A DNA stretch of 64,000 nucleotides from an uncultured Candidatus Saccharibacteria bacterium (GCA_964361095.1 CAYHZA010000001.1:1456-65455); one strand, 5' to 3'. Shown: positions 1 to 30,871, numbered from the stretch's first letter. Notes: generated by a model not told the origin, from the letters alone. A program made the numbers and translations.

Positions 1-141
1 AAATCTCGAAAGCCATTCGAGCTTGTATACTACGAAGCGTATAAGTCAGAAAGTGATGCTAGAAAAAGAGAGGCCAGCTTAAAGTTGCGAAGTCGAGCAT
101 TCGCACAATTGAAGAAACGTATAACCGACAGCACCAAGTAA
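1..141 (+). CDS. GIY-YIG nuclease (YhbQ/UPF0213-like), C-terminal fragment; 5' end lies beyond the window edge
   Basis: Frame 1 translates to KSRKPFELVYYEAYKSESDARKREASLKLRSRAFAQLKKR... This aligns with the C-terminus of the complete GIY-YIG ORF at 30512-30772 (RRPFELVYYEAYRAEDDARTREHNLKLRSNALNQLKRRLKK). Stop TAA at 139-141. Confidence 0.55.
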   Translation, partial: KSRKPFELVYYEAYKSESDARKREASLKLRSRAFAQLKKRITDSTK

Positions 142-154
142 TTTGGTGTGGGGG
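142..154. repeat. Right terminal inverted repeat TTTGGTGTGGGGG of the GIY-YIG mini-element family
   Basis: Immediately follows the GIY-YIG stop codon. Same arm as 222-236, 8486-8498 and 30765-30782. Confidence 0.6.
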
Positions 155-161
155 TAAACTT

Positions 162-389
162 ATGTCAAAGGAAATCGCCACTAAAACTGAGAAAGAAATT
201 CACCCCCACACCAAAGGGATTTTTGGTGTGGGGGTGTGCATCAAGTGCAAGAAGTGTGGCACTAAGGTTCTTTCTATTACGCGCGGTAGTTTAACCCCAT
301 GTAAGTGTGGGGCTATTTCTGTCGATGGCTCTAAAGAGTTAGTGAGAGTTATCGGTAAGCCAGAGGATTATGAAGAAATCCACAAATAA
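162..389 (+). CDS. Small zinc-ribbon protein (CxxCxxC...CxC) carrying an in-frame 36-bp palindromic insertion
   Basis: 75-aa ORF with Cys pairs CIKCKKCG...PCKCG. Codons 14-25 (HPHTKGIFGVGV) are encoded by the palindrome at 201-236. No clear RBS. Confidence 0.35.
   Translation: MSKEIATKTEKEIHPHTKGIFGVGVCIKCKKCGTKVLSITRGSLTPCKCGAISVDGSKELVRVIGKPEDYEEIHK
201..236. repeat. Solo (empty) hairpin copy of the CCCCCACACC element: cacccccacaccaaa-gggatt-tttggtgtgggggtg
   Basis: Perfect 15-bp inverted repeat with a 6-nt loop. Length 36 is a multiple of 3 and sits inside ORF 162-389. Confidence 0.7.
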
Positions 390-432
390 ATTTATGGCAA
401 GGAAATTATCAATAAAGTGGTAAAATGAAGGT

Positions 433-1281
433 ATGGCAAAAACTATAAAAATATTTTTGATTGACGGCGAACCTAACGGCCTAAAAACCGCTGAATTAAG
501 TAATTGGGTTGGTCAAGCAATCGTTATTCCTAGAAATAAACTTAAAGAAATAAAACAACGCCCTGAATGTAACAAGCCAGCAGTTTATTTTCTGATCGGT
601 AAAGAGAGCGAAGAAGCACTCTTGCCTACTGCATATGTAGGAGAGGCAGAAAATTTATGGAATAGACTATCTACTCATGATAGCTCAAAGGATTTTTGGC
701 AAACCGCAGTAGCGTTTGTGAGTAAAGATAATAATTTAACAAAAGCCCATGTTAGGTATCTTGAGAGTAGATGCTTAACTTTAGCAACTAAAGCAAAAAG
801 GTTTAATTTAGAAAATGGCACAGAATCATCTTTACCTTCTTTATCTGAAGCAGATATTGCCGAGATGGAAGAATTTTTGGAAAACCTGAAACTTTTGTTT
901 TCTGCTCTTGGCTACCCAATTTTGCAAGAAGTTATTTCTAAAGAACAAAAAAATATATCAGACCCTCTTTTTACTTGTAGGGGCAAAGATGCTTTAGCAA
1001 CTGGTCGTATGACAAACGACGGCTTTGTTGTTTATAAAGATTCAACCGCAACAACCGATATTTCGAAGGCAGTTATTGATCGTAATCAAAAAATTATAGA
1101 AAAGTTATTAAAAAATAATTATCTCGAAAAATTAAATGACGGCTTATATATTTTTGTTAAGGACTACGTCTTTAATAGTCCCAGTGCCGCATCTGATATT
1201 ACACTAGGCAATTCTACTAGCGGTTGGAAAAAATGGAAAACGGAAAGTGGCAAGACATTAGAAGAGGTTTATAGAAAATAA
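433..1281 (+). CDS. GIY-YIG (T5orf172-like) nuclease with C-terminal DUF4357-like domain
   Basis: N-terminal motifs VYFLIGK...AYVGEAENLWNRLSTH (GIY...YIG...R...H). The C-terminal tail SPSAASDITLGNSTSGWKKWKTESGKTLEEV matches the DUF4357 pattern as I recall it. Confidence 0.6.
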   Translation: MAKTIKIFLIDGEPNGLKTAELSNWVGQAIVIPRNKLKEIKQRPECNKPAVYFLIGKESEEALLPTAYVGEAENLWNRLSTHDSSKDFWQTAVAFVSKDNNLTKAHVRYLESRCLTLATKAKRFNLENGTESSLPSLSEADIAEMEEFLENLKLLFSALGYPILQEVISKEQKNISDPLFTCRGKDALATGRMTNDGFVVYKDSTATTDISKAVIDRNQKIIEKLLKNNYLEKLNDGLYIFVKDYVFNSPSAASDITLGNSTSGWKKWKTESGKTLEEVYRK

Positions 1282-1283
1282 AT

Positions 1284-3095
1284 ATGGGAAAGCTAAAAGA
1301 CATTCCAAAAATTGATAGACCGCGCGAACGATTCCTCCAAAAAGGAGCTGACGCACTTTCAAAAAGTGATCTTTTGGCAATTCTTTTAGGCAGTGGCATA
1401 AAAGGTAAAAATGTCAGGGAACTTTCAGAGAGTATTATCAAAAAATTTGGCAAAAACTTTTTAAATATAACCGTTGATGATCTTTTGGAAATTTCAGGGA
1501 TTGGCCAAGCCAAGGCATTACAAATTACTTCTGCAATTTCTTTGGTAAAAAGATTCTATGCGGACGAAAAATCAAACGAGACTATTATTAAAAATTCTCA
1601 AGATGTCCTATCATTCACCTACGATTTAAGAGATAAGAAAAAAGAACACTTGGTTTGTTTATACCTTAACGCAAGAAATTCTCTCCTCAAAAAGGAAATT
1701 GTTAGCGTAGGCTTACTAGATAAAACATTGCTCCATCCAAGAGAAATTTTTTATCCGGCAACAGAATTAAACGCCGCTAGTGTTATTTTAATTCACAACC
1801 ACCCATCGGGCGATTCTTCGCCAAGCGAAAAAGATAATCAAATTGTTGAAAAAATAGTTCAAGCAGGAGAAATAATGGGAATACCTGTTATTGATTTCAT
1901 TATTATCTCCGAAAATAATCATTATAGTTTTTATGAAAAACTAAGAAAGCAAAAAGAGACTTTTGATTATGTCGCTGACGGAATACAAGGGACACTCTTT
2001 GCAATATTTGAAGCTGAAAAACCAGCCTATGAAATAACTGCTGAAAAAATTCAAGAAAATTATTTCTACATCCCACAAGTAAAAGAAAATCACATCCAAT
2101 TACATAATCGCAGATATATAGGAAATAAACACAAACTAATTGAATGGATTTTTTCTATTATAAACAAAGAATGTAGTGGAAATTCTTTTGCAGATGTTTT
2201 TGCTGGGACGGGGGCTGTATCTGCTGTGGCGACAAAACACTTTAAAAAAGTATTATTAAATGATTTTTTACATTCCAATTACATAATATACCGTGCCTTT
2301 TTTGGAAAAGAAGCGTGGGACAAAAATAAGATAGATAGCATTATTAAGAGCTATAATAATATTTATGGCGGAGATTTAGAAGATAATTATTTTTCCAAAA
2401 ACTTTGGCGGTAAATTTTTCAGCAATAATTCAGCTAAAATTATCGGCTTTATTAGGGAAAACATTGAAGAAAACAAAAACAATTTAACGGAAAGAGAATA
2501 TTTTATGCTGATTGCGTCATTGCTTTATACGGCTGATAAAATCGCTAATACCGTTGGACATTTTGATGCTTATTTTAAAAAAGATTTTGTAAATGATAGT
2601 TTTTTCATGAAACCGATTGATCCGATTGATACCCAAGAAATATCTATTTTTCAAGAAGACACGAATGTTCTGGCAAAAAAGATAAAAGCAGATGTGGTTT
2701 ATATTGATCCGCCCTATAATTCCAGACAATACAGTCGTTTTTATCATGTACTTGAAACATTGACCAAATGGGATAAGCCAAAACTTTATGGAGTTGCGCT
2801 AAAACCAGATCCAGAAAATATGAGCGATTACTGCCGAGCTAATGCCAAAGAAAAATTTGCAGAACTTGTGAGAGATATTGATGCTCAATTTTTGGTTGTT
2901 TCGTATAATAATACATACGATTCAAAAAGTAATTCATCAAAAAATAAAATCACACTTCAAGAAATTGAAAAAATCTTACAAGCAAAAGGTAAAACGAAAG
3001 TTTTTGAAAAAAATTACAGACATTTTAATGCCGGTAATACAAATTTCAATAATCACAAAGAGTATTTGTTCGTAACTAAAAACCAACATGAATAA
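1284..3095 (+). CDS. Fusion protein: N-terminal RadC/JAB (JAMM) domain plus C-terminal Dam-like (D12 class) N6-adenine DNA methyltransferase
   Basis: RadC motifs include the HNHPSGDSSPSEKD JAMM signature and the helix-hairpin-helix-like ISGIGQAKA. The methyltransferase half has RRYIGNKHKL (Dam N-terminal motif), FAGTGAVS (motif I) and DPPY (motif IV). It is one continuous 603-aa ORF. Confidence 0.7.
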   Translation: MGKLKDIPKIDRPRERFLQKGADALSKSDLLAILLGSGIKGKNVRELSESIIKKFGKNFLNITVDDLLEISGIGQAKALQITSAISLVKRFYADEKSNETIIKNSQDVLSFTYDLRDKKKEHLVCLYLNARNSLLKKEIVSVGLLDKTLLHPREIFYPATELNAASVILIHNHPSGDSSPSEKDNQIVEKIVQAGEIMGIPVIDFIIISENNHYSFYEKLRKQKETFDYVADGIQGTLFAIFEAEKPAYEITAEKIQENYFYIPQVKENHIQLHNRRYIGNKHKLIEWIFSIINKECSGNSFADVFAGTGAVSAVATKHFKKVLLNDFLHSNYIIYRAFFGKEAWDKNKIDSIIKSYNNIYGGDLEDNYFSKNFGGKFFSNNSAKIIGFIRENIEENKNNLTEREYFMLIASLLYTADKIANTVGHFDAYFKKDFVNDSFFMKPIDPIDTQEISIFQEDTNVLAKKIKADVVYIDPPYNSRQYSRFYHVLETLTKWDKPKLYGVALKPDPENMSDYCRANAKEKFAELVRDIDAQFLVVSYNNTYDSKSNSSKNKITLQEIEKILQAKGKTKVFEKNYRHFNAGNTNFNNHKEYLFVTKNQHE

Positions 3096-3993
3096 CAAAA
3101 TCAAAAGGTCCCCGTTATTTTATGTCGGGGATAAATACAAACTAATGAAGCAATTGGTAAATTTATTTCCCAAAGAAGTGAATAATTTTTACGAACCTTT
3201 TGTTGGCGGAGGCACTGTATTTTTGAACATTGAAGCGAAGAAGTATTTTTTAAATGACATAAACAAACATCTGATTAACATACATAAGTTTTTGATGAAA
3301 AGCGCAGATAATCCAAGCTCGTTTTTTAAAAGCGTTGGAAAAGTAATATCCAAATATAAATTATCCAAATCTTACAAAGAAGATATAATTCCAGATTCAC
3401 TAAAAAAAGAATGGAAAAAAACTTATTTTGCCCGATTTAACAAAGAGGGATACGAAAAATTGAGAGTGTGTGTGAATAATAACAAAAAAAATGACCCTCT
3501 GATTTTGTATATTTTGCTTATATACGGGTTTAACAGAATGTTGAGATTTAATGGTGGTGGCAAATTTAATCTGCCTGTCGGGAATGTTGATTTTAACAAA
3601 AATGTAGTTAATGCCCTAAATGGCTATTTTGATTTTGTAAATAATAAGAAAATCACAATTACATCGAATGATTTTAAAAAGTTTTTTTTAGAGAAACAAT
3701 ATTTTAAAAATGATTTTGTTTATTTAGATCCGCCCTACTTAATAACCGCAAGCGAATATAATAAGTTTTGGGATTCAAAATCTGAATCTGACTTGTTAAA
3801 CTTAATCGATAATTTAGACAAAAGAGGCGTTAAATTTGCTTTATCAAATGTTACACATTACAACGGAAGCAAAAATGACCTTTTGATAGAGTGGATGGGA
3901 CAATATAAGGTACACAAAATTGAAAGCAACTATATTAGCTATCACAATAATGGGAAAAAGATAATCAAAGAAGTCTTGATCACTAACTATTAA
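3088..3993 (+). CDS. Dam-like (D12 class) N6-adenine DNA methyltransferase
   Basis: FYVGDKYKL N-terminal motif, EPFVGGGTVF (motif I), LDPPY (motif IV). Overlaps the upstream ORF by 8 nt, so operon-like. Confidence 0.75.
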   Translation: MNNKIKRSPLFYVGDKYKLMKQLVNLFPKEVNNFYEPFVGGGTVFLNIEAKKYFLNDINKHLINIHKFLMKSADNPSSFFKSVGKVISKYKLSKSYKEDIIPDSLKKEWKKTYFARFNKEGYEKLRVCVNNNKKNDPLILYILLIYGFNRMLRFNGGGKFNLPVGNVDFNKNVVNALNGYFDFVNNKKITITSNDFKKFFLEKQYFKNDFVYLDPPYLITASEYNKFWDSKSESDLLNLIDNLDKRGVKFALSNVTHYNGSKNDLLIEWMGQYKVHKIESNYISYHNNGKKIIKEVLITNY

Positions 3994-3997
3994 AATT

Positions 3998-5515
3998 ATG
4001 AAAAAACGACAATCCGAATATAAACCATTATTATTTACGACAACAATGAGAAATCCTGAACGACTAAAGGATTTTTTAACCGTGCTTGTTGAATATGATG
4101 GCGAAATTTTAACAAACGAAATTATTGATAAAGTAGCTAAAATCTTGATTCAAAAAGGGTTATATCAACCCATGAAAATAACGCAAGTAGTAAAAGGTAA
4201 ATGGAAAAACGAAATAGAACTAAGCGAGGCTGAAACCGAAAAAGTATTTGATGAGAATCCGCAAAGCCATAAAGAGGCAGGTTTTGAAAAAGGTTGGCCA
4301 TCGAGATTTGATACTTGGTTTAAAATTGCCAAAGAACTTGGTTTTGTTTGGTATTGGCCAAATGAAGAAATAAAATTTTCCGAAAGCGGGAAAATGCTAT
4401 TGGATAAAGAAAAACCTGAAAACGAATTGATGGTTTTTGCTAATGCTTTCGCAAAATATCAGCGACAAAATCCGTTTCGTAGAGTTTTAAATAAAAATGT
4501 ACCATTGATATTGCTGATACAAACAATAAAACTCCTAGACAATGACCCTGCCTATAATGGCACGGGTATTTCAAGGTTAGAAATTCCGTTATTGCTCTGT
4601 TGGCAAAATGATAATGCCGAAAGTTTATATCGTGAAATAAAAAAGTTGCGTAAAAAATATGGCTATTCGCCAAGCAATGAGATAGTTTTAGATCTTTGCT
4701 ATGAATTATTAAACGAAACCAAAAGAGACGATAATTCTATCTTAGGTGATTATCCCGATGATTTTATTCGCAAAATGCGTTTAACTGGTTTATTTTCTTT
4801 GCGTGGTGGCGGTCGTTTCATTGACATCAACACAAAAGAAATTGCGACTGTAAATTATATTTTAGAAAATTATATTTCTTATCCAACCTTTACGACTGAA
4901 AAAGATTATTTTGATTATATTGGCAAAGTGGACACCAATTTGATTGCAACGCTCTCCGTCTATGAAACTCCTGTTAGAACTACTAAAGCGGAGTTGGAAA
5001 AATGGGTAAATCATTATGCGTGGGAATCAATTAAAACCGAGATGCTTAATTTAGCGCAGAAAAAATCTTCCGAAGATGATATTTTGCGGGTGATAGAACA
5101 GCCTTTGCGTTTAGAGTTTTTAACCTCTTTGGCTATTCTCAAAAAATTACCAAATGTTGTAGTAAAGCCAAATTTTGTTTCAGATGATGAGGGTTTACCG
5201 ACAAGCTTTGCTTCTGGTGGAAACCCAGATATTGAATGTCTAGAAGATAAGGACACCGTATTGATAGAAGTGACTTTACTAACAGGCACACAGCAACATA
5301 TTAGAGAGTCATTTTCAGTACACCGACATCTTGAGGAGTATGTAAAGAAAGGCACTAAATCATATTCTGTGTTTATCTCCCCCAAATCTTTCATTGATAC
5401 TGAACGCTATTTTGATTTTATCAAAAAGGATGGTTTGGAAGTGAGAATTTCGAATATCGATAAATTCGTCCTCGGTCTTGAAGAAAAGACAACATTGAAC
5501 GAAGCGACTTTATGA
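3998..5515 (+). CDS. Candidate restriction endonuclease (type IIS-like, family unassigned; possibly AlwI-like)
   Basis: 505-aa ORF starting 5 nt after the second methyltransferase gene. The C-terminal segment GGNPDIECLEDKDTVLIEVTLLTG resembles a PD-(D/E)xK core. Two same-strand N6A methyltransferases upstream are typical of asymmetric-site type IIS systems. Family assignment is by context and memory only. Confidence 0.35.
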   Translation: MKKRQSEYKPLLFTTTMRNPERLKDFLTVLVEYDGEILTNEIIDKVAKILIQKGLYQPMKITQVVKGKWKNEIELSEAETEKVFDENPQSHKEAGFEKGWPSRFDTWFKIAKELGFVWYWPNEEIKFSESGKMLLDKEKPENELMVFANAFAKYQRQNPFRRVLNKNVPLILLIQTIKLLDNDPAYNGTGISRLEIPLLLCWQNDNAESLYREIKKLRKKYGYSPSNEIVLDLCYELLNETKRDDNSILGDYPDDFIRKMRLTGLFSLRGGGRFIDINTKEIATVNYILENYISYPTFTTEKDYFDYIGKVDTNLIATLSVYETPVRTTKAELEKWVNHYAWESIKTEMLNLAQKKSSEDDILRVIEQPLRLEFLTSLAILKKLPNVVVKPNFVSDDEGLPTSFASGGNPDIECLEDKDTVLIEVTLLTGTQQHIRESFSVHRHLEEYVKKGTKSYSVFISPKSFIDTERYFDFIKKDGLEVRISNIDKFVLGLEEKTTLNEATL

Positions 5516-5553
5516 TTGTAAAAAATTAGAATCAATTTACGAGAGCTAAATTT

Positions 5554-7461
5554 ATGGAAGATATTAAAGCAACAATTCACGGAGACGCTACAAGTGATCA
5601 AATTGAAGCAATTGACCACATTGGCAGTCATGCAAGATTACTCGCTGGACCCGGAACGGGAAAAACAAAAACGCTTACTCGGCGCGTACTTTCTTTGATT
5701 CTCCAACATAATGCCGACCCCGATTCAATTCTCTTACTTACGTTCACTCGTTTAGCCGCCGCTCAACTGAAAGATGAGATCAAAAAAGTGTTAGAACCTT
5801 TGGGCAAAACCATTCCACAAGTATCAACGCTTCACTCCTTTGCATTAAGGCAGATTCTTTATAATTCGAGCAGAATTGACACATTACCAAGACCAATCAG
5901 AATAGCCGATGACTGGGAAGAACGGTATATCATTCAAGAAGATTTAAAAAAAGTTTTAAATCTCAAAGAAATTGGCGATGTTCAAAAATTGATCAATCAG
6001 CTTTCAACTGACTGGGAAACTTTGAGAATTGATGAAATTGGCTGGGAGCAACAATTTCCAAACCCCGCTTTTCTTGGTGCGTGGCGAAGCCACAAAGATC
6101 AATATGGCGAAACACTAAGGGCGGAACTTGTTTATCAACTGAAAAAGCAGTTAAACCAAAGCAGGGATTTTCAATTAGACAAAGAGTATAAACATATTCT
6201 GATTGACGAGTATCAAGACCTGAACGCTTGCGATCTTGCCATAGTCAATGAATTAGCAAAGCGAGGCGCGGAATTATTTGTTGCGGGAGATGATGACCAG
6301 AGTATCTACGGCTTCCGTTTCGCAACCCCCGCAGGTATAAGAAATTTTGAACAGATATATCAAAATTCCAAAAAATTGGCGTTAGAAATATGTTTTCGTT
6401 GTGATAAAAACATATTACATTCAGCAGAATTTGTAGCGAGCCTTGATCCTGCACGCTTGCCAAAACCAACACGACCAAAAGACGAAGCTGAAGATGGTGA
6501 GGTTTTGATAATTGGTTTTAAGGATCAAAGTCATGAAGCTGAAATTATAGCCAAGAAAATAAAAAGTTTGATTGACGCAGACATCAAGCCAGATCAAATC
6601 ACAATTTTACTAAGAAACGACCGAAACAGCTTATTATCCAAGCCGATTATTGAAGCCCTAAAAAAGTATAGCGTCGATGTATCTTTGACGACTGATTCGG
6701 AATTAGAAAATAACAAGGAGTATCGAACAGTTTTATCAATAATTCGTTTGTTGGTTGATCAAAATGATTGTTTAGCTTGGCGAACATTATTACAAATCAA
6801 CAAAACTAATGGCTTGGGCGATGAGTGTATAAAAAGTATATGGAATTATGCGCAAAGCAAGGGAATACGTTTTAGTGTGGCTTTACAAAAAATAGCCGAA
6901 TCTCCAAGCGAATTACAAAAGTTTGGCCAAAAAATAGCAAAATTTGTTTCCGAAATAAACGTGGCAATCGTGGAACTCAAAGCCATTGAAAGTCCGACCG
7001 AAGCGATAAACGCAACAGTTGATAAATTTATGGGTGAAGGAGAGATAAAAGAACAAGTGAAAAAATATTTTGTTGGAATTTTGGAGAATCAAGAAAAACC
7101 TGATCTTGAGAATTTAATTAAAATAGTAAGTACTTCGTCGGAATATATTGAGCAAGAAACAAAAGAAAACGCTGTTAATATACTCACTATGCACCAAGCA
7201 AAAGGATTATCTTTTGATGTATGTTTTATAGTTGGTGCGGAAGATGAATATATTCCCGGACGAAATACAGGAGATAAGGAGGGCGATGAAAGAAGATTAC
7301 TGTATGTGTCCATGACAAGAGCGAGGCATAAATTATTTATCAGCTATTGTAATAAACGAACCGGACAACAAAGACATTCAGGAAGTAATAGCGGAACAGA
7401 AAAAAGAACATTAACCAGATTTCTTAGAGATTCCAAAATCCCAATAAAACAGGTAGAATAA
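5554..7461 (+). CDS. UvrD/PcrA-like superfamily-1 DNA helicase
   Basis: Walker A AGPGTGKT. Motifs LLLTFTRLAAAQL, DEYQDLN, and the C-terminal ILTMHQAKGLSFD...RRLLYVSMTRARHKL. Confidence 0.8.
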   Translation: MEDIKATIHGDATSDQIEAIDHIGSHARLLAGPGTGKTKTLTRRVLSLILQHNADPDSILLLTFTRLAAAQLKDEIKKVLEPLGKTIPQVSTLHSFALRQILYNSSRIDTLPRPIRIADDWEERYIIQEDLKKVLNLKEIGDVQKLINQLSTDWETLRIDEIGWEQQFPNPAFLGAWRSHKDQYGETLRAELVYQLKKQLNQSRDFQLDKEYKHILIDEYQDLNACDLAIVNELAKRGAELFVAGDDDQSIYGFRFATPAGIRNFEQIYQNSKKLALEICFRCDKNILHSAEFVASLDPARLPKPTRPKDEAEDGEVLIIGFKDQSHEAEIIAKKIKSLIDADIKPDQITILLRNDRNSLLSKPIIEALKKYSVDVSLTTDSELENNKEYRTVLSIIRLLVDQNDCLAWRTLLQINKTNGLGDECIKSIWNYAQSKGIRFSVALQKIAESPSELQKFGQKIAKFVSEINVAIVELKAIESPTEAINATVDKFMGEGEIKEQVKKYFVGILENQEKPDLENLIKIVSTSSEYIEQETKENAVNILTMHQAKGLSFDVCFIVGAEDEYIPGRNTGDKEGDERRLLYVSMTRARHKLFISYCNKRTGQQRHSGSNSGTEKRTLTRFLRDSKIPIKQVE

Positions 7462-7508
7462 CAATAGAAATTTAAAGTCCGCCGAAAAGTTTTGGGGGCA
7501 AAGCCCAA

Positions 7509-7609: not shown

Positions 7610-8392
7610 ATGAAAATCAAATCAAAACCACAAATCCTAGAACGGCGGAAAGAGATCGAGCAGGAGCTCTTGGATATGCTCAAAGAAACAGAGAGCGATT
7701 TTACTCTGGATCATGTCCGGGACGTTATTTTCCATGAGGAAGACAACGACGACATGATGAAAGTCGTAGCCATGTTTGATCGCGGAGGAGACGCTTCGGA
7801 ATTGAGTAATGTTCTTGAACTCGTAACCGACGCCTGGAATTACTTTCCACATAAAGTGCTTGGTGGCATCTCTCCGGCGGAGAAATTACTAGAGCACCAC
7901 AATAAAACTAAACTTATGAAAATCAACAACACATTCAAACTCATCATCGCTATCATAGTCTCCGAGCTTGCCGGTATCATCGGCTCGGTGTTTACCACAC
8001 CATCCATTGCTGGCTGGTACGCTGGGATTGCGAAGCCTGCTCTTAATCCTCCGGCGTGGGTATTCGGACCGGTCTGGACGACGCTCTTTGCGCTCATGGG
8101 CATCGCGGCCTTTCTCGTCTGGAAGAAAGGGCTGGATCGCAGAGATGTAAAAATCGCTCTTGGCATATTCCTCGGCCAGCTGGTCTTGAACACGCTTTGG
8201 TCAATTATCTTTTTCGGTCTGCATAGCCCCGGCGGTGCGCTGATTGAGATCGTATTCCTCTGGCTCGCCATTCTCGCCACGATCGTTGCGTTTTATAAAA
8301 TCTCCAAACCGGCGGCGTGGCTTCTGGTGCCATATATTCTTTGGGTCAGTTTCGCGATGTACTTAAACTATGCGATCTGGGCATTAAATTAA
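7610..8392 (+). CDS. tspO: TspO/MBR family membrane protein with ~100-aa N-terminal hydrophilic extension
   Basis: C-terminal 160 aa read WYAGIAKPALNPPAWVFGPVWTTLFALMGIAAFLVW, LGIFLGQLVLNTLWS and WLLVPYILWVSFA. This is typical of TspO. Confidence 0.6.
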   Translation: MKIKSKPQILERRKEIEQELLDMLKETESDFTLDHVRDVIFHEEDNDDMMKVVAMFDRGGDASELSNVLELVTDAWNYFPHKVLGGISPAEKLLEHHNKTKLMKINNTFKLIIAIIVSELAGIIGSVFTTPSIAGWYAGIAKPALNPPAWVFGPVWTTLFALMGIAAFLVWKKGLDRRDVKIALGIFLGQLVLNTLWSIIFFGLHSPGGALIEIVFLWLAILATIVAFYKISKPAAWLLVPYILWVSFAMYLNYAIWALN

Positions 8393-8468
8393 GCAATTAT
8401 GACTCGGTGCAATTTGCTTAATATTTCTTTAGTTAAGCAAATCGTCCCACGCTCACAAATTTGGTTTT

Positions 8469-8499
8469 ACCCCCACACCAAAAACTTTGGTGTGGGGGT
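8469..8499. repeat. Solo hairpin copy of the CCCCCACACC element: acccccacaccaaa-aac-tttggtgtgggggt
   Basis: Perfect 13-14-bp inverted repeat with a 3-nt loop in an intergenic region. Confidence 0.7.
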
Positions 8500-8551
8500 T
8501 TACGGCTCGGACCGGATTCAACTGGTGGCAAACTCTTACTCTCGGTACAAA

Positions 8552-8789
8552 GCTCGCCCCGTTAGATAATTTCATATCTAACGGGGCGAGCCACCCCAGT
8601 AGTACAGCGAAGCTGACTACGGGGCAGGCAAGGGCAACCAAGTGGGGAATCAGGGGTTACAGGTTCTCGTACTTGGCCAGCAATCCTTTCACCCCGTTAG
8701 ATGCAAAGTTATCTAACGGGGTGAATCTGATCCAAAACCACGGTAGGATACCCCAGTAGTAGAACGTGAAGCGTTCACTACGGGGCAGG
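8552..8789. repeat. Two tandem ~136-bp units, each a long hairpin (CCCCGTTAGAT...ATCTAACGGGG) followed by a second hairpin (CCCCAGTAGTA...ACTACGGGGCAGG)
   Basis: Unit A is 8552-8628 and unit B is 8688-8789. The outer stems covary (gctcg/cgagc versus ttcac/gtgaa) while the inner stem is conserved. That pattern suggests a selected RNA or DNA structure. Confidence 0.55.
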
Positions 8790-8888
8790 TTTGTACTCCT
8801 CCGCCCAGTCAAAAGTTCGAAAATCGTTGAGCAGGGCGAGCTTTGGAGTCAATACAAATTACCCGGGAATGTGCGGCGCCCTGTTAAG

Positions 8889-8914
8889 GCGAAGGTTTTA
8901 ATTCGGGAGTAATT
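8889..8914. repeat. 21-nt motif GCGAAGGTTTTAATTCGGGAG(+NAATT), copy 1, upstream of lipoprotein gene
   Basis: Identical 21-mer recurs at 10002-10022. Both copies lie ~100 bp upstream of a start codon. Confidence 0.5.
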
Positions 8915-8917
8915 ACA

Positions 8918-8946
8918 TTGACATTTAGTACGAAGCGTGCTATGAT
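8918..8946 (+). promoter_or_regulatory. Sigma70-type promoter TTGACA-17-TATGAT
   Basis: ttgaca (8918-8923), a 17-nt spacer, then tatgat (8941-8946). An RBS aaaggaga lies upstream of the ATG at 8989. Confidence 0.6.
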
Positions 8947-8988
8947 GTTTTCGGCACTTAACTGATAATCAAAAAGGAGAAACGGGAG

Positions 8989-9411
8989 ATGAAAACGTCG
9001 AAAGGTATCGTATTGTTTTGTGCGGTATTGATCATCCTTATTTCGTCGGCATGCAGAGAAATAAAGATGGTTCTCTCGCCTGAAATGACAGAGGAAGCGA
9101 CTGTCGCTGATCTCGTCTACACGCCGTCAAATCACGGGAGCGACATCAGCCCGACCATGAACATGAACGGAGACCTCGGCGTTGCATTTACGAGTATCGA
9201 CATTTTGGAACGGTATGCAGTAGTCTTCCAGTGCCAGCATGAAAAGTTCATAGTCCAGAGCGACCAGACGAAAGCGAAGGAGCTTTGGACGCGCCTGAAG
9301 AAAGACCAGAAGGTGACCGTCAGATACAGAGAAAGATACGAGGAAACATTCGACGACGAGAAACTCGTCGAACGACGTCTGAAGAAATATGATTTCATCG
9401 ACGCCAACTGA
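8989..9411 (+). CDS. Small secreted or lipoprotein of unknown function
   Basis: N-terminal signal peptide MKTSKGIVLFCAVLIILISSAC (lipobox-like ISSAC). Good RBS. GC-rich relative to neighbours. Confidence 0.5.
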   Translation: MKTSKGIVLFCAVLIILISSACREIKMVLSPEMTEEATVADLVYTPSNHGSDISPTMNMNGDLGVAFTSIDILERYAVVFQCQHEKFIVQSDQTKAKELWTRLKKDQKVTVRYRERYEETFDDEKLVERRLKKYDFIDAN

Positions 9412-9699: not shown

Positions 9700-10001
9700 T
9701 ACTACTTAAAAAATCGCAGTCTCGAACGATCCGCCAGCTGGCGGAGAGAGTCGAATTTCTAAAGGTCCCAGAGGGATTGCGACTTGTATTCAAAATCGTT
9801 ACGCTTTTGAACAAGTCGGGAAACTGAGATTTGTAACCCCGCTATGCGCGGACAAATCGGGAGCCTACCCGCGGAGCTCGGAAATCAGATGCCCCTTGTT
9901 GGGGCATTTCAGATTTCGCTTCTTGGATTTGTGTATCAGATTTGGCAAAATAATTTCAAAAACTTGCCCCGTTGGAAGCCGTAGGCTTTCTTTCGGGGTT
10001 T

Positions 10002-29621: not shown

Positions 29622-30482
29622 ATGGAGGGTTTGCACGATAAAAAATTAAAATTCTTAGAGGAGATGTCGAATGTCTTGCGTCAAGACGTGATAAAAACAC
29701 TCGTCGAGGCGGGGAGCGGACACTCGGCGGGTCCCTTGGGTATGGCGGACATCTTTACGACGCTTTATTTCCATATTTTAAATCACGATCCGAAGAAACC
29801 GGAGTGGCCGGATCGGGATCGCGTGGTTCTCTCGAATGGGCATATTTGCCCGATTTTATACGTTACGCTTGCCCACGCTGGCTATTTCAAGCTCGAAGAG
29901 TTAAAGACGCTCCGTAAGCTCAATTCTCGTCTCCAGGGCCATCCGCACCGTAAATCATTGCCGGGAGTTGAAACCACGTCCGGCCCTTTGGGTTCGGGGA
30001 TTTCGCAGGCGATCGGTATCGCGCTCGCGGCAAAGCTTGACGGCAAGCGGTATCGCACCTATTGTCTGACGTCCGACGGCGAACACGAGGAGGGAAATAC
30101 ATGGGAGGCGATAATGTTTGCGGGAAAAAACAGATTAAGCAATCTTACGGTTGTCGTGGATCGCAATAACATTCAAATCGACGGTTTTACCGAAACGATA
30201 ATGCCCCTTGAGCCGTTTGCCGAAAAGTACAAATCTTTCAACTGGTATGTGATTGAAGTGAACGGCCACAGCCATCAGGATTTTGTGGATGCTGTTGCCG
30301 AAGCGCACGCGATTCATGAACGCCCGACGGTAATTATCGCGCATACGATTCCCGGAAAAGGGGTGAGTTTTATGGAAGATGACTTTCGCTGGCATGGTAA
30401 ACCACCAAACAAAGAAGAAGCTAATAAGGCATTAAAAGAGCTAAGAACTTTAGGTGATCGCATCGCCAGCGAACATCAATAA
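29622..30482 (+). CDS. tkt: Transketolase, N-terminal (TPP-binding) subunit; its last ~25 codons are supplied by the inserted element
   Basis: GHSAGPLGMADI, LSNGH, GPLGSGISQAIGIALA, TSDGEHEEG. The 3' end (30393-30482) has AT-rich, recoded codon usage. Confidence 0.85.
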   Translation: MEGLHDKKLKFLEEMSNVLRQDVIKTLVEAGSGHSAGPLGMADIFTTLYFHILNHDPKKPEWPDRDRVVLSNGHICPILYVTLAHAGYFKLEELKTLRKLNSRLQGHPHRKSLPGVETTSGPLGSGISQAIGIALAAKLDGKRYRTYCLTSDGEHEEGNTWEAIMFAGKNRLSNLTVVVDRNNIQIDGFTETIMPLEPFAEKYKSFNWYVIEVNGHSHQDFVDAVAEAHAIHERPTVIIAHTIPGKGVSFMEDDFRWHGKPPNKEEANKALKELRTLGDRIASEHQ

Positions 30483-30782
30483 GTGGCACGCCCCCACACC
30501 TAACGAGTTTTATGTTCTACATCTATATGTTAAAGAGCAAAAAGGATAATATGTTATATGTAGGTTCTACTGGTGATCTACGAGAAAGGTTTGCTTTGCA
30601 TAATGCAGGGAAAATAGTTTCTACCAAAGGTCGCCGCCCGTTTGAACTGGTTTATTATGAAGCTTATCGCGCCGAGGATGATGCCCGTACACGCGAGCAT
30701 AACCTAAAGCTTCGTTCTAATGCCCTAAACCAGTTGAAACGCAGATTGAAGAAAAGTCTCGAAACTCGTTAGGTGTGGGGGC
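30393..30782 (+). mobile_element. GIY-YIG mini-element: recoded transketolase 3' end, 18-bp terminal inverted repeats (gcccccacacctaacgag / ctcgttaggtgtgggggc) and the GIY-YIG gene
   Basis: Inverted repeats lie at 30490-30507 and 30765-30782. Upstream of the left repeat is a synonymous, AT-rich recoding of the host gene end. Host sequence resumes at 30783. Confidence 0.7.
30512..30772 (+). CDS. GIY-YIG nuclease (YhbQ/UPF0213-like, 86 aa)
   Basis: MLYVGSTGDLRERFALHN (GIY...YIG...R...H). The stop codon lies inside the right inverted repeat. Confidence 0.8.
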   Translation: MFYIYMLKSKKDNMLYVGSTGDLRERFALHNAGKIVSTKGRRPFELVYYEAYRAEDDARTREHNLKLRSNALNQLKRRLKKSLETR

Positions 30783-30871
30783 ACGGGAAACCGCCGAAGC
30801 CGGACGAAGCACGGATTGCACTTAAGGAACTGCGGACATTAGGGGAGAGGATAAAGAGCGAACACCAATAA
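30783..30871 (+). pseudogene. Displaced original 3' end of the transketolase N-subunit gene (HGKPPKPDEARIALKELRTLGERIKSEHQ*)
   Basis: GC-rich host-like codons. Translation parallels ...HGKPPNKEEANKALKELRTLGDRIASEHQ* at the end of the intact ORF. Confidence 0.65.

Follow-up and report, generated by a model that had tools for sequence, protein, structure and literature searches.

The window, by which we mean the whole 64-kb stretch of DNA analysed here, comes from Hainich groundwater (0.1-µm fraction) and contains a region, at 8393-8988, where mechanical ORF calling finds short ORFs only, in the neighbourhood of genes for TspO and a lipoprotein. A preliminary description of this DNA had placed four hairpins in what it took to be a non-coding region, and in both respects it holds up: the coordinates and stems of all four were recovered, far beyond chance. 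The hairpins are of two kinds, here called hp1 and hp2, each present in two copies (A and B). A hairpin of a third kind, hpC, lies beside them, and a gene-carrying element with hpC-type repeats is found at 30.5 kb. The features discussed below are as follows.

203-234, no strand assigned: second hpC miniature hairpin, CCCCCACACCAAAGGGATTTTTGGTGTGGGGG, ssDNA fold z -5.8
7911-7920, plus strand: empty target on the TspO start codon (ACTTATGAAAATC), filled in L245, L164 and L284 with the duplication ATGA
8470-8498, no strand assigned: hpC miniature hairpin CCCCCACACCAAAAACTTTGGTGTGGGGG, with TTTA directly duplicated at 8466-8469 and 8499-8502
8552-8591: stem of hp1A including its GCTCG/CGAGC extension, 17 bp, perfect
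8557-8586, no strand assigned: hp1A, perfect palindrome CCCCGTTAGAT-AATTTCAT-ATCTAACGGGG, followed by the tail CGAG at 8587-8590
8594-8624, plus strand: hp2A, bulged, CCCC-A-GTAGT-A-CAGC-GAA-GCTG-ACTAC-GGGG, followed by the tail CAGG at 8625-8628
8688-8725: stem of hp1B including its TTCA/TGAA extension, 15 bp, perfect
8692-8721, no strand assigned: hp1B, CCCCGTTAGAT-GCAAAGTT-ATCTAACGGGG, followed by the tail TGAA at 8722-8725
8751-8785, plus strand: hp2B, bulged, CCCCAGTAGTA-GAACG-TGAAG-CGTTC-ACTACGGGG, followed by the tail CAGG at 8786-8789
9963-9998, minus strand: possible further member, weak, CCCCG..CGGGG with the tail CAAG
30491-30781, plus strand: gene-carrying element of hpC type, 291 bp, with CACG duplications at 30487-30490 and 30782-30785
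30512-30772, plus strand: gene for a single-domain GIY-YIG nuclease of 86 aa (Pfam PF01541, E 1.9e-16)

In total the window has six to seven hairpin copies, all within its first 10 kb; the family membership of the one at 9963-9998 is uncertain because its fold z is only -1.9. The 11-mer arm CCCCGTTAGAT occurs four times here, compared with a chance expectation of 0.98 in the window at up to one mismatch, and the observed count was reached in none of 100 shuffles. Folded as ssDNA, the hairpins have stems of 11-17 bp and z values of -4.8 to -11 relative to shuffled sequence (-5.5 to -11 for the four of the original description), and the whole region folded as RNA gives z values of -6.7 and -6.0 on the two strands. 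The hp2 copies follow the general form CCCC-A-GTAGT-A-(inner stem-loop)-ACTAC-GGGG and are followed by CAGG; hp2B is without a target duplication. The tail of either hp1 copy pairs with the host flank on the other side, of which it is the reverse complement: CGAG with CTCG (8553-8556) in hp1A and TGAA with TTCA (8688-8691) in hp1B.

The four hairpins had been grouped into two tandem units of about 136 bp with covarying outer stems. We find no such unit: the hairpins alone repeat, at distances of 135 nt for hp1 and 157-161 nt for hp2, and they are separated by unrelated sequence. The irregular spacing of the hp1 and hp2 copies and the lack of cas genes in the annotated 23 kb around the site agree with the earlier statement that this is not a CRISPR array. 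A scan against Rfam 15, one of the checks proposed at that stage, returned only four tRNAs at gathering score in the whole window; no relevant family appeared at gathering score or at E up to 10, and at a relaxed threshold no match to 8350-9050 was better than E = 2. The hairpin sequence strings gave only chance primer matches in the literature.

Relatives of the window organism allow the individual hairpins to be compared with their target sites. One hp2 match, L241, comes from a relative and covers the orthologous intergenic region, its flanks being 81-100% identical. L193 and L245 are further relatives; L241 and L193 are groundwater genomes as well. Four hairpins of the window can be aligned with uninterrupted sites (a slash marks the point of insertion).

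hpC: window TTTGGTTTTA(CCCCCACACC..GGGGG TTTA)CGG; L241 TTTGGTTTTA/TGG; insert of 29 nt plus a 4-nt direct duplication
hp1A: window, after AAAGCTCG; L241 AAAGCTCG/CCACCCC; insert of 30 nt plus CGAG, 34 nt
hp1B: window, after CCTTTCA; L241 and L193 CCTTTCA/TCTGATCC; insert of 30 nt plus TGAA
hp2B: window, after GGTAGGATA; L241 and L193 GGTAGGATA/TTTGTA; insert of 35 nt plus CAGG, 39 nt

The hpC block (33 nt) is missing in L241 and L193 and present in L245, and hp1A, hp1B and hp2B are likewise all missing from the intergenic region of L241 and L193, where the spacer lacks about 140 nt of the sequence inserted in the window. The only one of the four hairpins common to all four genomes is hp2A, whose inner stem differs among them; L193 and L241 have this hairpin alone, and L245 has all five elements and others, with a different loop in hp1B. 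The relatives also carry hairpins at sites that are empty in the window, several of them in frame in a small ORF upstream of TspO. The fetched loci supplied at least 10 more clean pairs of filled and empty sites, and in L071 and L115 homologous proteins differ by a hairpin. The Hainich assemblies of the window organism are identical across the region and so carry no information on polymorphism at the locus. Judged by these alignments, each of the hairpins is a separately inserted mobile hairpin copy and not part of one structured RNA, and the two supposed units resolve into four separate insertions, or five with the neighbouring hpC.

The same comparison bears on the covariation that had been reported in the outer stems. 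The hp1 copies do differ there with pairing kept, but this is not the evolution of one RNA, because the left bases are host flank, as seen at the empty site in L241, and the right 4 nt came with the insert. The nearby CCCCCACACC hairpin, which had been described as a solo neighbour, exists as such; however, it is no bystander but a third member of the family, with a TTTA duplication and a gene-carrying counterpart at 30.5 kb. We considered a terminator role for this hairpin and rejected it, given that the T-run that follows it is the duplicated target TTTA; a terminator scan called no terminator-like site on this or any other of the hairpins.

Three kinds of 4-nt tail are found at the right junction. 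In the first, identical 4 nt lie on both sides of hp1 (31 of 122 copies among the matches listed, against 4.5 expected from shuffled flank pairing), and the duplicated target is mostly TTNA. In the second, which includes both window copies of hp1, the left flank is matched on the right by its reverse complement, and empty sites show that the left flank belongs to the host and that the right 4 nt came with the insert. The third has CAGG, CAAG or CGAG on the right, without a duplication and usually with the insert after an A; every hp2 pair examined shows this pattern as well. The 4 nt added on insertion are a direct copy of the target (TTNA preferred), its reverse complement or a fixed CARG tail (always for hp2); we looked for a single rule covering all three kinds of tail and found none. 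L193 and L245 have the loop in reverse-complement form relative to each other at one site, which explains why loop orientation is independent of the flanks.

Both families are widespread. The exact hp1 palindrome (CCCCGTTAGAT-loop-ATCTAACGGGG) was found by an exact-pattern scan in at least 120 MAG contigs of many phyla, labelled as Patescibacteria lineages, Omnitrophota, Elusimicrobiota, Nitrospirota, Planctomycetota, Cloacimonadota, WOR-3, Ignavibacteria, proteobacteria and one Aenigmatarchaeota, where the labels are the records' own and may include mis-binned contigs. It also occurs in 8 IMG/VR viral contigs. A pattern scan for the bulged hp2 hairpin found at least 120 metagenome contigs. 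There are several hairpin copies per MAG among the matches listed, although such copy numbers and the identity of stems across phyla are subject to ascertainment, and the identity is partly built in because the search used an exact pattern. Variants with symmetric changes exist (CCCCGTTAGAG..CTCTAACGGGG and CCCTGTTGGAT..ATCCAACAGGG). The inner stem of hp2 varies freely in sequence, with 98.9% of cells paired, and it shows 41 double-change cells compared with 11.7 in shuffles, none of 500 of which reached 41; by this measure the hp2 hairpin is maintained. Around about 250 copies no neighbouring gene family was present in more than 11 loci, which argues against a role in a linked operon or in cis-regulation. 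The copies occur in both orientations relative to genes, and some hp2 copies are just upstream of start codons.

About a quarter of the copies lie inside long ORFs (27 of about 125 for hp1 and 35 of 127 for hp2, among the matches listed). Here they form in-frame inserts of 11-13 residues in conserved genes, for example IscS, WecB and a pilin, and encode peptides of the form ..TPLDxxHLTG.. or ..PVRCLLSNGV... When IscS (cysteine desulfurase) and UDP-GlcNAc 2-epimerase are aligned with solved homologues, a gap of 11-12 residues falls exactly at the hairpin peptide, and in the pilin the removal of the hairpin and one TTTA restores a canonical leader, MDKKGF/TLVEL. Adding 4 to the hairpin length gives a number divisible by 3 in 15 of 17 copies in long ORFs and in 58 of 96 elsewhere (p = 0.03), an excess in keeping with a unit of insertion made up of the hairpin and 4 nt and with selection for the reading frame.

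The element at 30.5 kb connects the hairpins to a gene. Its repeats, GCCCCCACACCTAACGAGTTT and AAACTCGTTAGGTGTGGGGGC, are 21 nt long and perfectly inverted (30490-30510 and 30762-30782), the outermost G and C of these tool-reported repeats being part of the CACG duplication, and the hairpins at 8470-8498 and 203-234 have the outer 10 nt of these repeats as their arms. The ATG of the nuclease gene (30512) is 1 nt past the left repeat, and the stop codon TAG (30770-30772) is within the right repeat. The best solved relative of the 86-aa protein is 1ZG2, a UPF0213 GIY-YIG protein (E 4.6e-6). The search found 120 homologues, of which the three close ones that were fetched (L255, L265 and L273, with record labels Falkowbacteria, Sungbacteria and Omnitrophota) are 62-69% identical to it and share the CCCCCACACC-type repeats. 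In the two CPR loci, L255 and L265, the ATG again lies 0-2 nt past the left repeat and the stop codon is in the right repeat; L265 has a clean target duplication, TCAA.

Ends of hp1 type bracket GIY-YIG genes as well, in L040 (where the element is flanked by TGAA/TTCA), in L245, L164 and L284, and in L294. In L245 and L164 the TspO start codon is the exact site of a gene of about 90 aa for a single-domain GIY-YIG nuclease, bracketed by the hp1-type arms CCCGTTAGAG ... CTCTAACGGG. Another start-codon site, in front of an NTP-transferase gene, holds an hp1-type GIY-YIG element with the duplication ATGA. In all, there are seven independent sites at which a GIY-YIG gene has terminal repeats identical to hairpin arms.

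Full-length elements are about 290 bp long and have terminal inverted repeats of 11-21 bp beginning with CCCC; the start codon is 1 nt past the left repeat or upstream of the repeat, and the stop codon is inside or just after the right repeat. In miniature copies the repeat cores are split by a loop of 3-12 nt (hp1 and hpC) or by a variable inner stem-loop (hp2), giving hairpins of 29-35 nt. Both kinds of element occupy sites that are uninterrupted in relatives, and insertion adds the element and 4 nt. The proteins are 62-69% and 57% identical within the two repeat types and 48-56% identical between them, and in these comparisons each nuclease subfamily has its own repeat sequence. With 4840 clusters at E up to 1e-10, the hp1-type protein family is very large. 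The sampled loci yielded no GIY-YIG gene between ends of hp2 type.

We read the region, with a probability of roughly 0.7, as five independently inserted miniature hairpins, gene-less derivatives of a family of very small mobile GIY-YIG elements that would be driven by their nuclease. The 86-aa protein is a candidate for the mobilising and hairpin-binding enzyme. Of the two possibilities raised in the preliminary description, the structured ncRNA of two units does not stand, but the protein-binding palindromic repeat comes close to this reading, in that the arms are the terminal repeats of GIY-YIG nuclease genes and such nucleases reportedly bind flanking hairpins in ssDNA form and cut beside them (PMC11893778).

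We suspect that the nuclease of full-length copies recognises the folded repeat pair on ssDNA, for instance at replication forks or on incoming DNA, and that it nicks at the hairpin foot. Host replication or repair could then complete the movement into a site with a 4-nt stagger, and miniature copies may be mobilised in trans. The loops of palindromic copies could flip in place, and their unpaired flanks may be "corrected" into longer stems by template switching, which would produce the apparent covariation. Our working idea for the tails is similar, namely that intrastrand template switching may later turn a duplication into its complement. If the nearby genes for TspO and the lipoprotein are affected at all, this would be a secondary effect. 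The weak point of this mechanism is the joining step, since GIY-YIG nucleases are known to cut DNA but, to our knowledge, not to join it, and we know of no enzyme for the integration step. It could also be that the hairpins are the primary elements and the GIY-YIG genes are cargo nested in hairpin loops.

The closest known system is that of the Ssn family, single-domain GIY-YIG proteins (cd10448) encoded by genes with hairpin repeats on either side (Chenal et al., Nat Commun 2025, PMC11893778). These repeats are NTS/dRS3 in Neisseria and are called "SRM" elsewhere, including in Rickettsia, which is among the SRM-rich genera, and in Wolbachia. Ssn nucleases bind the flanking hairpin repeats as ssDNA only and nick a few nucleotides 5' of the hairpin; the authors pointed out that the repeat-gene-repeat layout is IS-like and hypothesised mobility, with movement not shown (PMC11893778). 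Shared with our elements are a single-domain GIY-YIG gene of about 90 aa with hairpin-forming repeats of 20-50 nt on both sides, the joint variation of protein and repeat sequence, and a short conserved 3' flank after the hairpin (CYRG in NTS, CARG or CGAG here). The Ssn repeats are dispersed genome-wide in many copies, as those described here may be, given the six to seven copies in the window and the several per MAG among the matches listed. All three families have the hairpin inverted repeat of 20-50 nt, and a gene flanked on both sides is found for hpC and hp1 but not for hp2.

However, there are differences from Ssn. The elements described here have no 5' CGTC tag and their stems are clamped by CCCC/GGGG; the SRM pattern HGTCWYN(0-2)YYVSBRHN(0-5)WNVSBRGN(0-2)RNCYNB has no match on the two strands of the window (shuffles average 0.3), nor in any of the hairpins or terminal repeats. 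Our elements occur in Patescibacteria, Omnitrophota and similar groups, with about one copy in four intragenic compared with 2% for NTS, and their insertion is backed by filled and empty sites and a 4-nt duplication. The window protein may belong to cd10448 with Ssn; it matches the Pfam GIY-YIG family, and its best solved match is a UPF0213 protein.

The alternative that fares best, although we consider it unlikely, is that these are REP/REPIN-type repeats moved by a RAYT, a Y1 HUH enzyme of the IS200/IS605 superfamily, and that the GIY-YIG genes are passengers with no link to them. Our hairpins are like REPs in their size, form and clustering and in the absence of an adjacent gene; REPs are short, GC-clamped and dispersed and are thought to be mobilised in trans by a nuclease reading ssDNA hairpins. 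A catalogue of REPs tagged with GTAG or CGTC includes some that lie within genes, and the same work describes Y1 transposases with GGGGWSAS repeats at their flanks (Di Nocera et al. 2013, PMC3733652). In addition, hp2 contains GTAG, and its insertion, free of duplication, beside a short motif and in a fixed orientation, resembles IS200/IS605 behaviour. Y1_Tnp genes do exist in these communities (L116 and L194, confirmed with Pfam), but they are the only two in about 250 loci and both go with GGGGTCAGAC-type repeats rather than with hp1, hp2 or hpC. A phmmer screen of the window ORFs with approximate Y1 transposase query sequences found no Y1_Tnp. Furthermore, hp1 and hpC have neither a GTAG nor a CGTC tag, their 5' flanks are variable host sequence, and the GTAG of hp2 is inside the stem. 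The 4-nt target duplication is not a feature of Y1 transposition, and the gene bracketed by the arms at seven independent sites is GIY-YIG and not Y1_Tnp.

A comparison with IS200/IS605, PATEs and integron attC sites is instructive in other respects. In all of them the recognised feature is a folded ssDNA hairpin with conserved bulges, as in hp2, and insertion is oriented beside a short motif. In contrast to IS200/IS605 and PATEs, which have two different subterminal hairpins, one hairpin is the entire element here, and neither a Y1 transposase nor an integrase is associated with it. We rejected integron attC sites as an identification: the core sites are reversed in hp1 (GTTAGAT 5' and ATCTAAC 3', compared with RYYYAAC 5' and GTTRRRY 3' in attC), the stem is perfect and without extrahelical bases, and the copies are solitary, with no integrase, no array and no recurring neighbour gene.

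Slightly less probable still is that the hairpins are ordinary MITEs, that is, internally deleted IS copies whose CCCC.. repeats are read by a DDE transposase making 4-bp staggered cuts. The likeness is considerable, and includes terminal inverted repeats with a fixed 4-nt duplication (in hp1 and hpC) and TTNA preference, insertion in either orientation, nested insertions, and a non-autonomous form with a gene-carrying partner that has the same ends. In about 300 loci, however, such ends neither enclosed nor adjoined a DDE transposase gene, no transposase family is enriched near the copies, and GIY-YIG is the only gene seen bracketed by them. Typical MITEs, at 70-300 bp, are several times the size of these copies, whose ends are just 3-12 bp apart and would be hard to bring together as duplex DNA. 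The absence of a duplication in hp2, together with its conserved bulges, points instead to recognition of a folded single strand. Rickettsia palindromic elements, which are about 100-150 bp long and confined to Rickettsiales, are set apart by description from the elements here, which are 29-39 nt long and occur in many phyla.

That the region holds a functional structured RNA or a cis-regulatory element (terminator, mRNA stabiliser or sRNA) conserved in place seems to us very improbable, since the strong folds, the compensatory changes in hp2 inner stems, the retention of hp2A at its site in four related genomes and the hp2 copies just upstream of start codons must be weighed against the lack of any Rfam family or called terminator, the three of four hairpins that are missing from the relatives' orthologous region, and the copies that lie inside ORFs or in both orientations relative to genes. 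Individual copies may be used secondarily as RNA elements.

Returning to the mobile GIY-YIG elements, we also considered a broader proposal, which is tentative and on balance somewhat doubtful: that a single-domain, Ssn-like GIY-YIG nuclease is the sole protein of an unrecognised class of prokaryotic transposable element of about 290 bp, with CCCC repeats and a 4-bp duplication, often inserted on host start codons so as to borrow the ribosome-binding site. The 29-39-nt hairpin derivatives would then be the smallest mobile DNA units, spread across phyla and tolerated in frame in essential genes. If this were true, the element would be among the smallest autonomous mobile elements known, and if the nuclease drives movement, it would represent a transposase type absent among the known prokaryotic classes considered and an extreme lower limit of size.

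The hypothesis from the Ssn work that units of gene and hairpin are insertion-sequence-like is made testable by this locus and its relatives, which offer sites in both the filled and the empty state, a duplicated target, autonomous forms with their miniature counterparts, and pairs of protein and repeat for biochemistry. Each pair of nuclease and hairpin is a potential sequence-specific ssDNA cutter. For annotation, short palindromic inserts in conserved proteins of candidate phyla, assemblies broken at these repeats and intergenic "structured RNA" candidates may often be these elements. Among the more distant homologues of the nuclease, several GIY-YIG genes in the sampled loci stand beside tRNA genes and are without such repeats, a point against the GIY-YIG reading.

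In relatives, namely L245 (which has the orthologous intergenic region), L164, L284 and L294, GIY-YIG elements of the hp1 type lie exactly at host start codons, with ATGA as the duplication. These elements are units of about 290 bp in which a small nuclease gene sits between inverted repeats starting CCCC, and in the hp1 type the repeats match the arms of hp1, one of the three families of mobile hairpins (hp1, hp2 and hpC). Translation of the nuclease ORF begins at the duplicated ATG and continues through the left repeat (MNPVRE..); the TGA that ends the ORF overlaps the host ATG. The 94-aa form of the nuclease, with its start at the duplicated ATG, occurs in about 60% of the best 120 homologues.

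The GIY-YIG element of the window, which is of the hpC type (30491-30781), immediately follows the stop codon of the gene for the transketolase N-terminal subunit (29622-30482). Directly 3' of the element (30782-30870), the final ~28 codons of that gene appear a second time in a GC-richer version (HGKPPKPDEARIALKELRTLGERIKSEHQ*). This arrangement suggests that the element came with a replacement transketolase 3' end, which took the place of the original one. The more remote GIY-YIG homologues at L274-L279 (44-50% identity) adjoin tRNA genes, the 5' segment of the tRNA being duplicated upstream of the homologue. No CCCC-type inverted repeats were found at these homologues, which appear to have a different, tRNA-targeting habit.

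Two genes for RAYT-like Y1_Tnp (Y1 HUH transposases, considered as rival movers of the hairpins) were identified:
L116, 345-1316, RAYT-like Y1_Tnp gene
L194, 466-1251, RAYT-like Y1_Tnp gene
One of the two carries a DnaA-type HTH, and both are flanked by GGGGTCAGAC / GGTCTGACCCC repeats, in agreement with GGGGWSAS, the motif that has been reported at "TIRYT" genes. Shortly upstream of the L116 gene there is a broken hp1 as well as an hp1-like hairpin.

In MAGs that are unrelated to each other, short direct repeats (6-14 nt; CACAGAG, AATCAGCG, AAATTCC and CAATTTACAAT) stand a few nucleotides off on both sides of many hp1 copies (L002, L015, L024, L050, L085, L099, L100 and others). Where hairpins share an orthologous site, their loop or inner stem diverges far more than the flanks, as in two pairs:
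Window 8594-8624 and L241 2088-2124, diverged hairpins at the same site
Window 8692-8721 and L245, diverged hairpins at the same site
This suggests either repeated insertion at a hot spot or gene conversion among copies. Other palindrome families are present in the relatives' orthologous loci (L193 9000-9200; L245, reverse strand). One of these families, CCTGCCTGCCGGCAGGCAGG, recurs at multiple positions, among them the hp1A site of L193.

All window hairpin copies are in the first 10 kb, inside or slightly past a low-GC island (1-7500; 30-39% GC versus 45-50% across the remaining window) that encodes a restriction-modification-like cluster:
Within 1-7500, DUF4357/RAMA protein
Within 1-7500, RadC and D12 adenine-methyltransferase fusion
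Within 1-7500, second D12 methyltransferase
Within 1-7500, AlwI-family endonuclease
Within 1-7500, UvrD helicase
Two genes probably make up the ORF at 7610-8392: a small ORF comes first, followed by TspO, which starts at ATG 7916. Downstream of every hairpin, and upstream of a 140-aa gene (8989-9411), is a near-consensus promoter at 8918-8946 (TTGACA, 17-nt spacer, TG-TATGAT); this gene is therefore independent of read-through across the hairpins.
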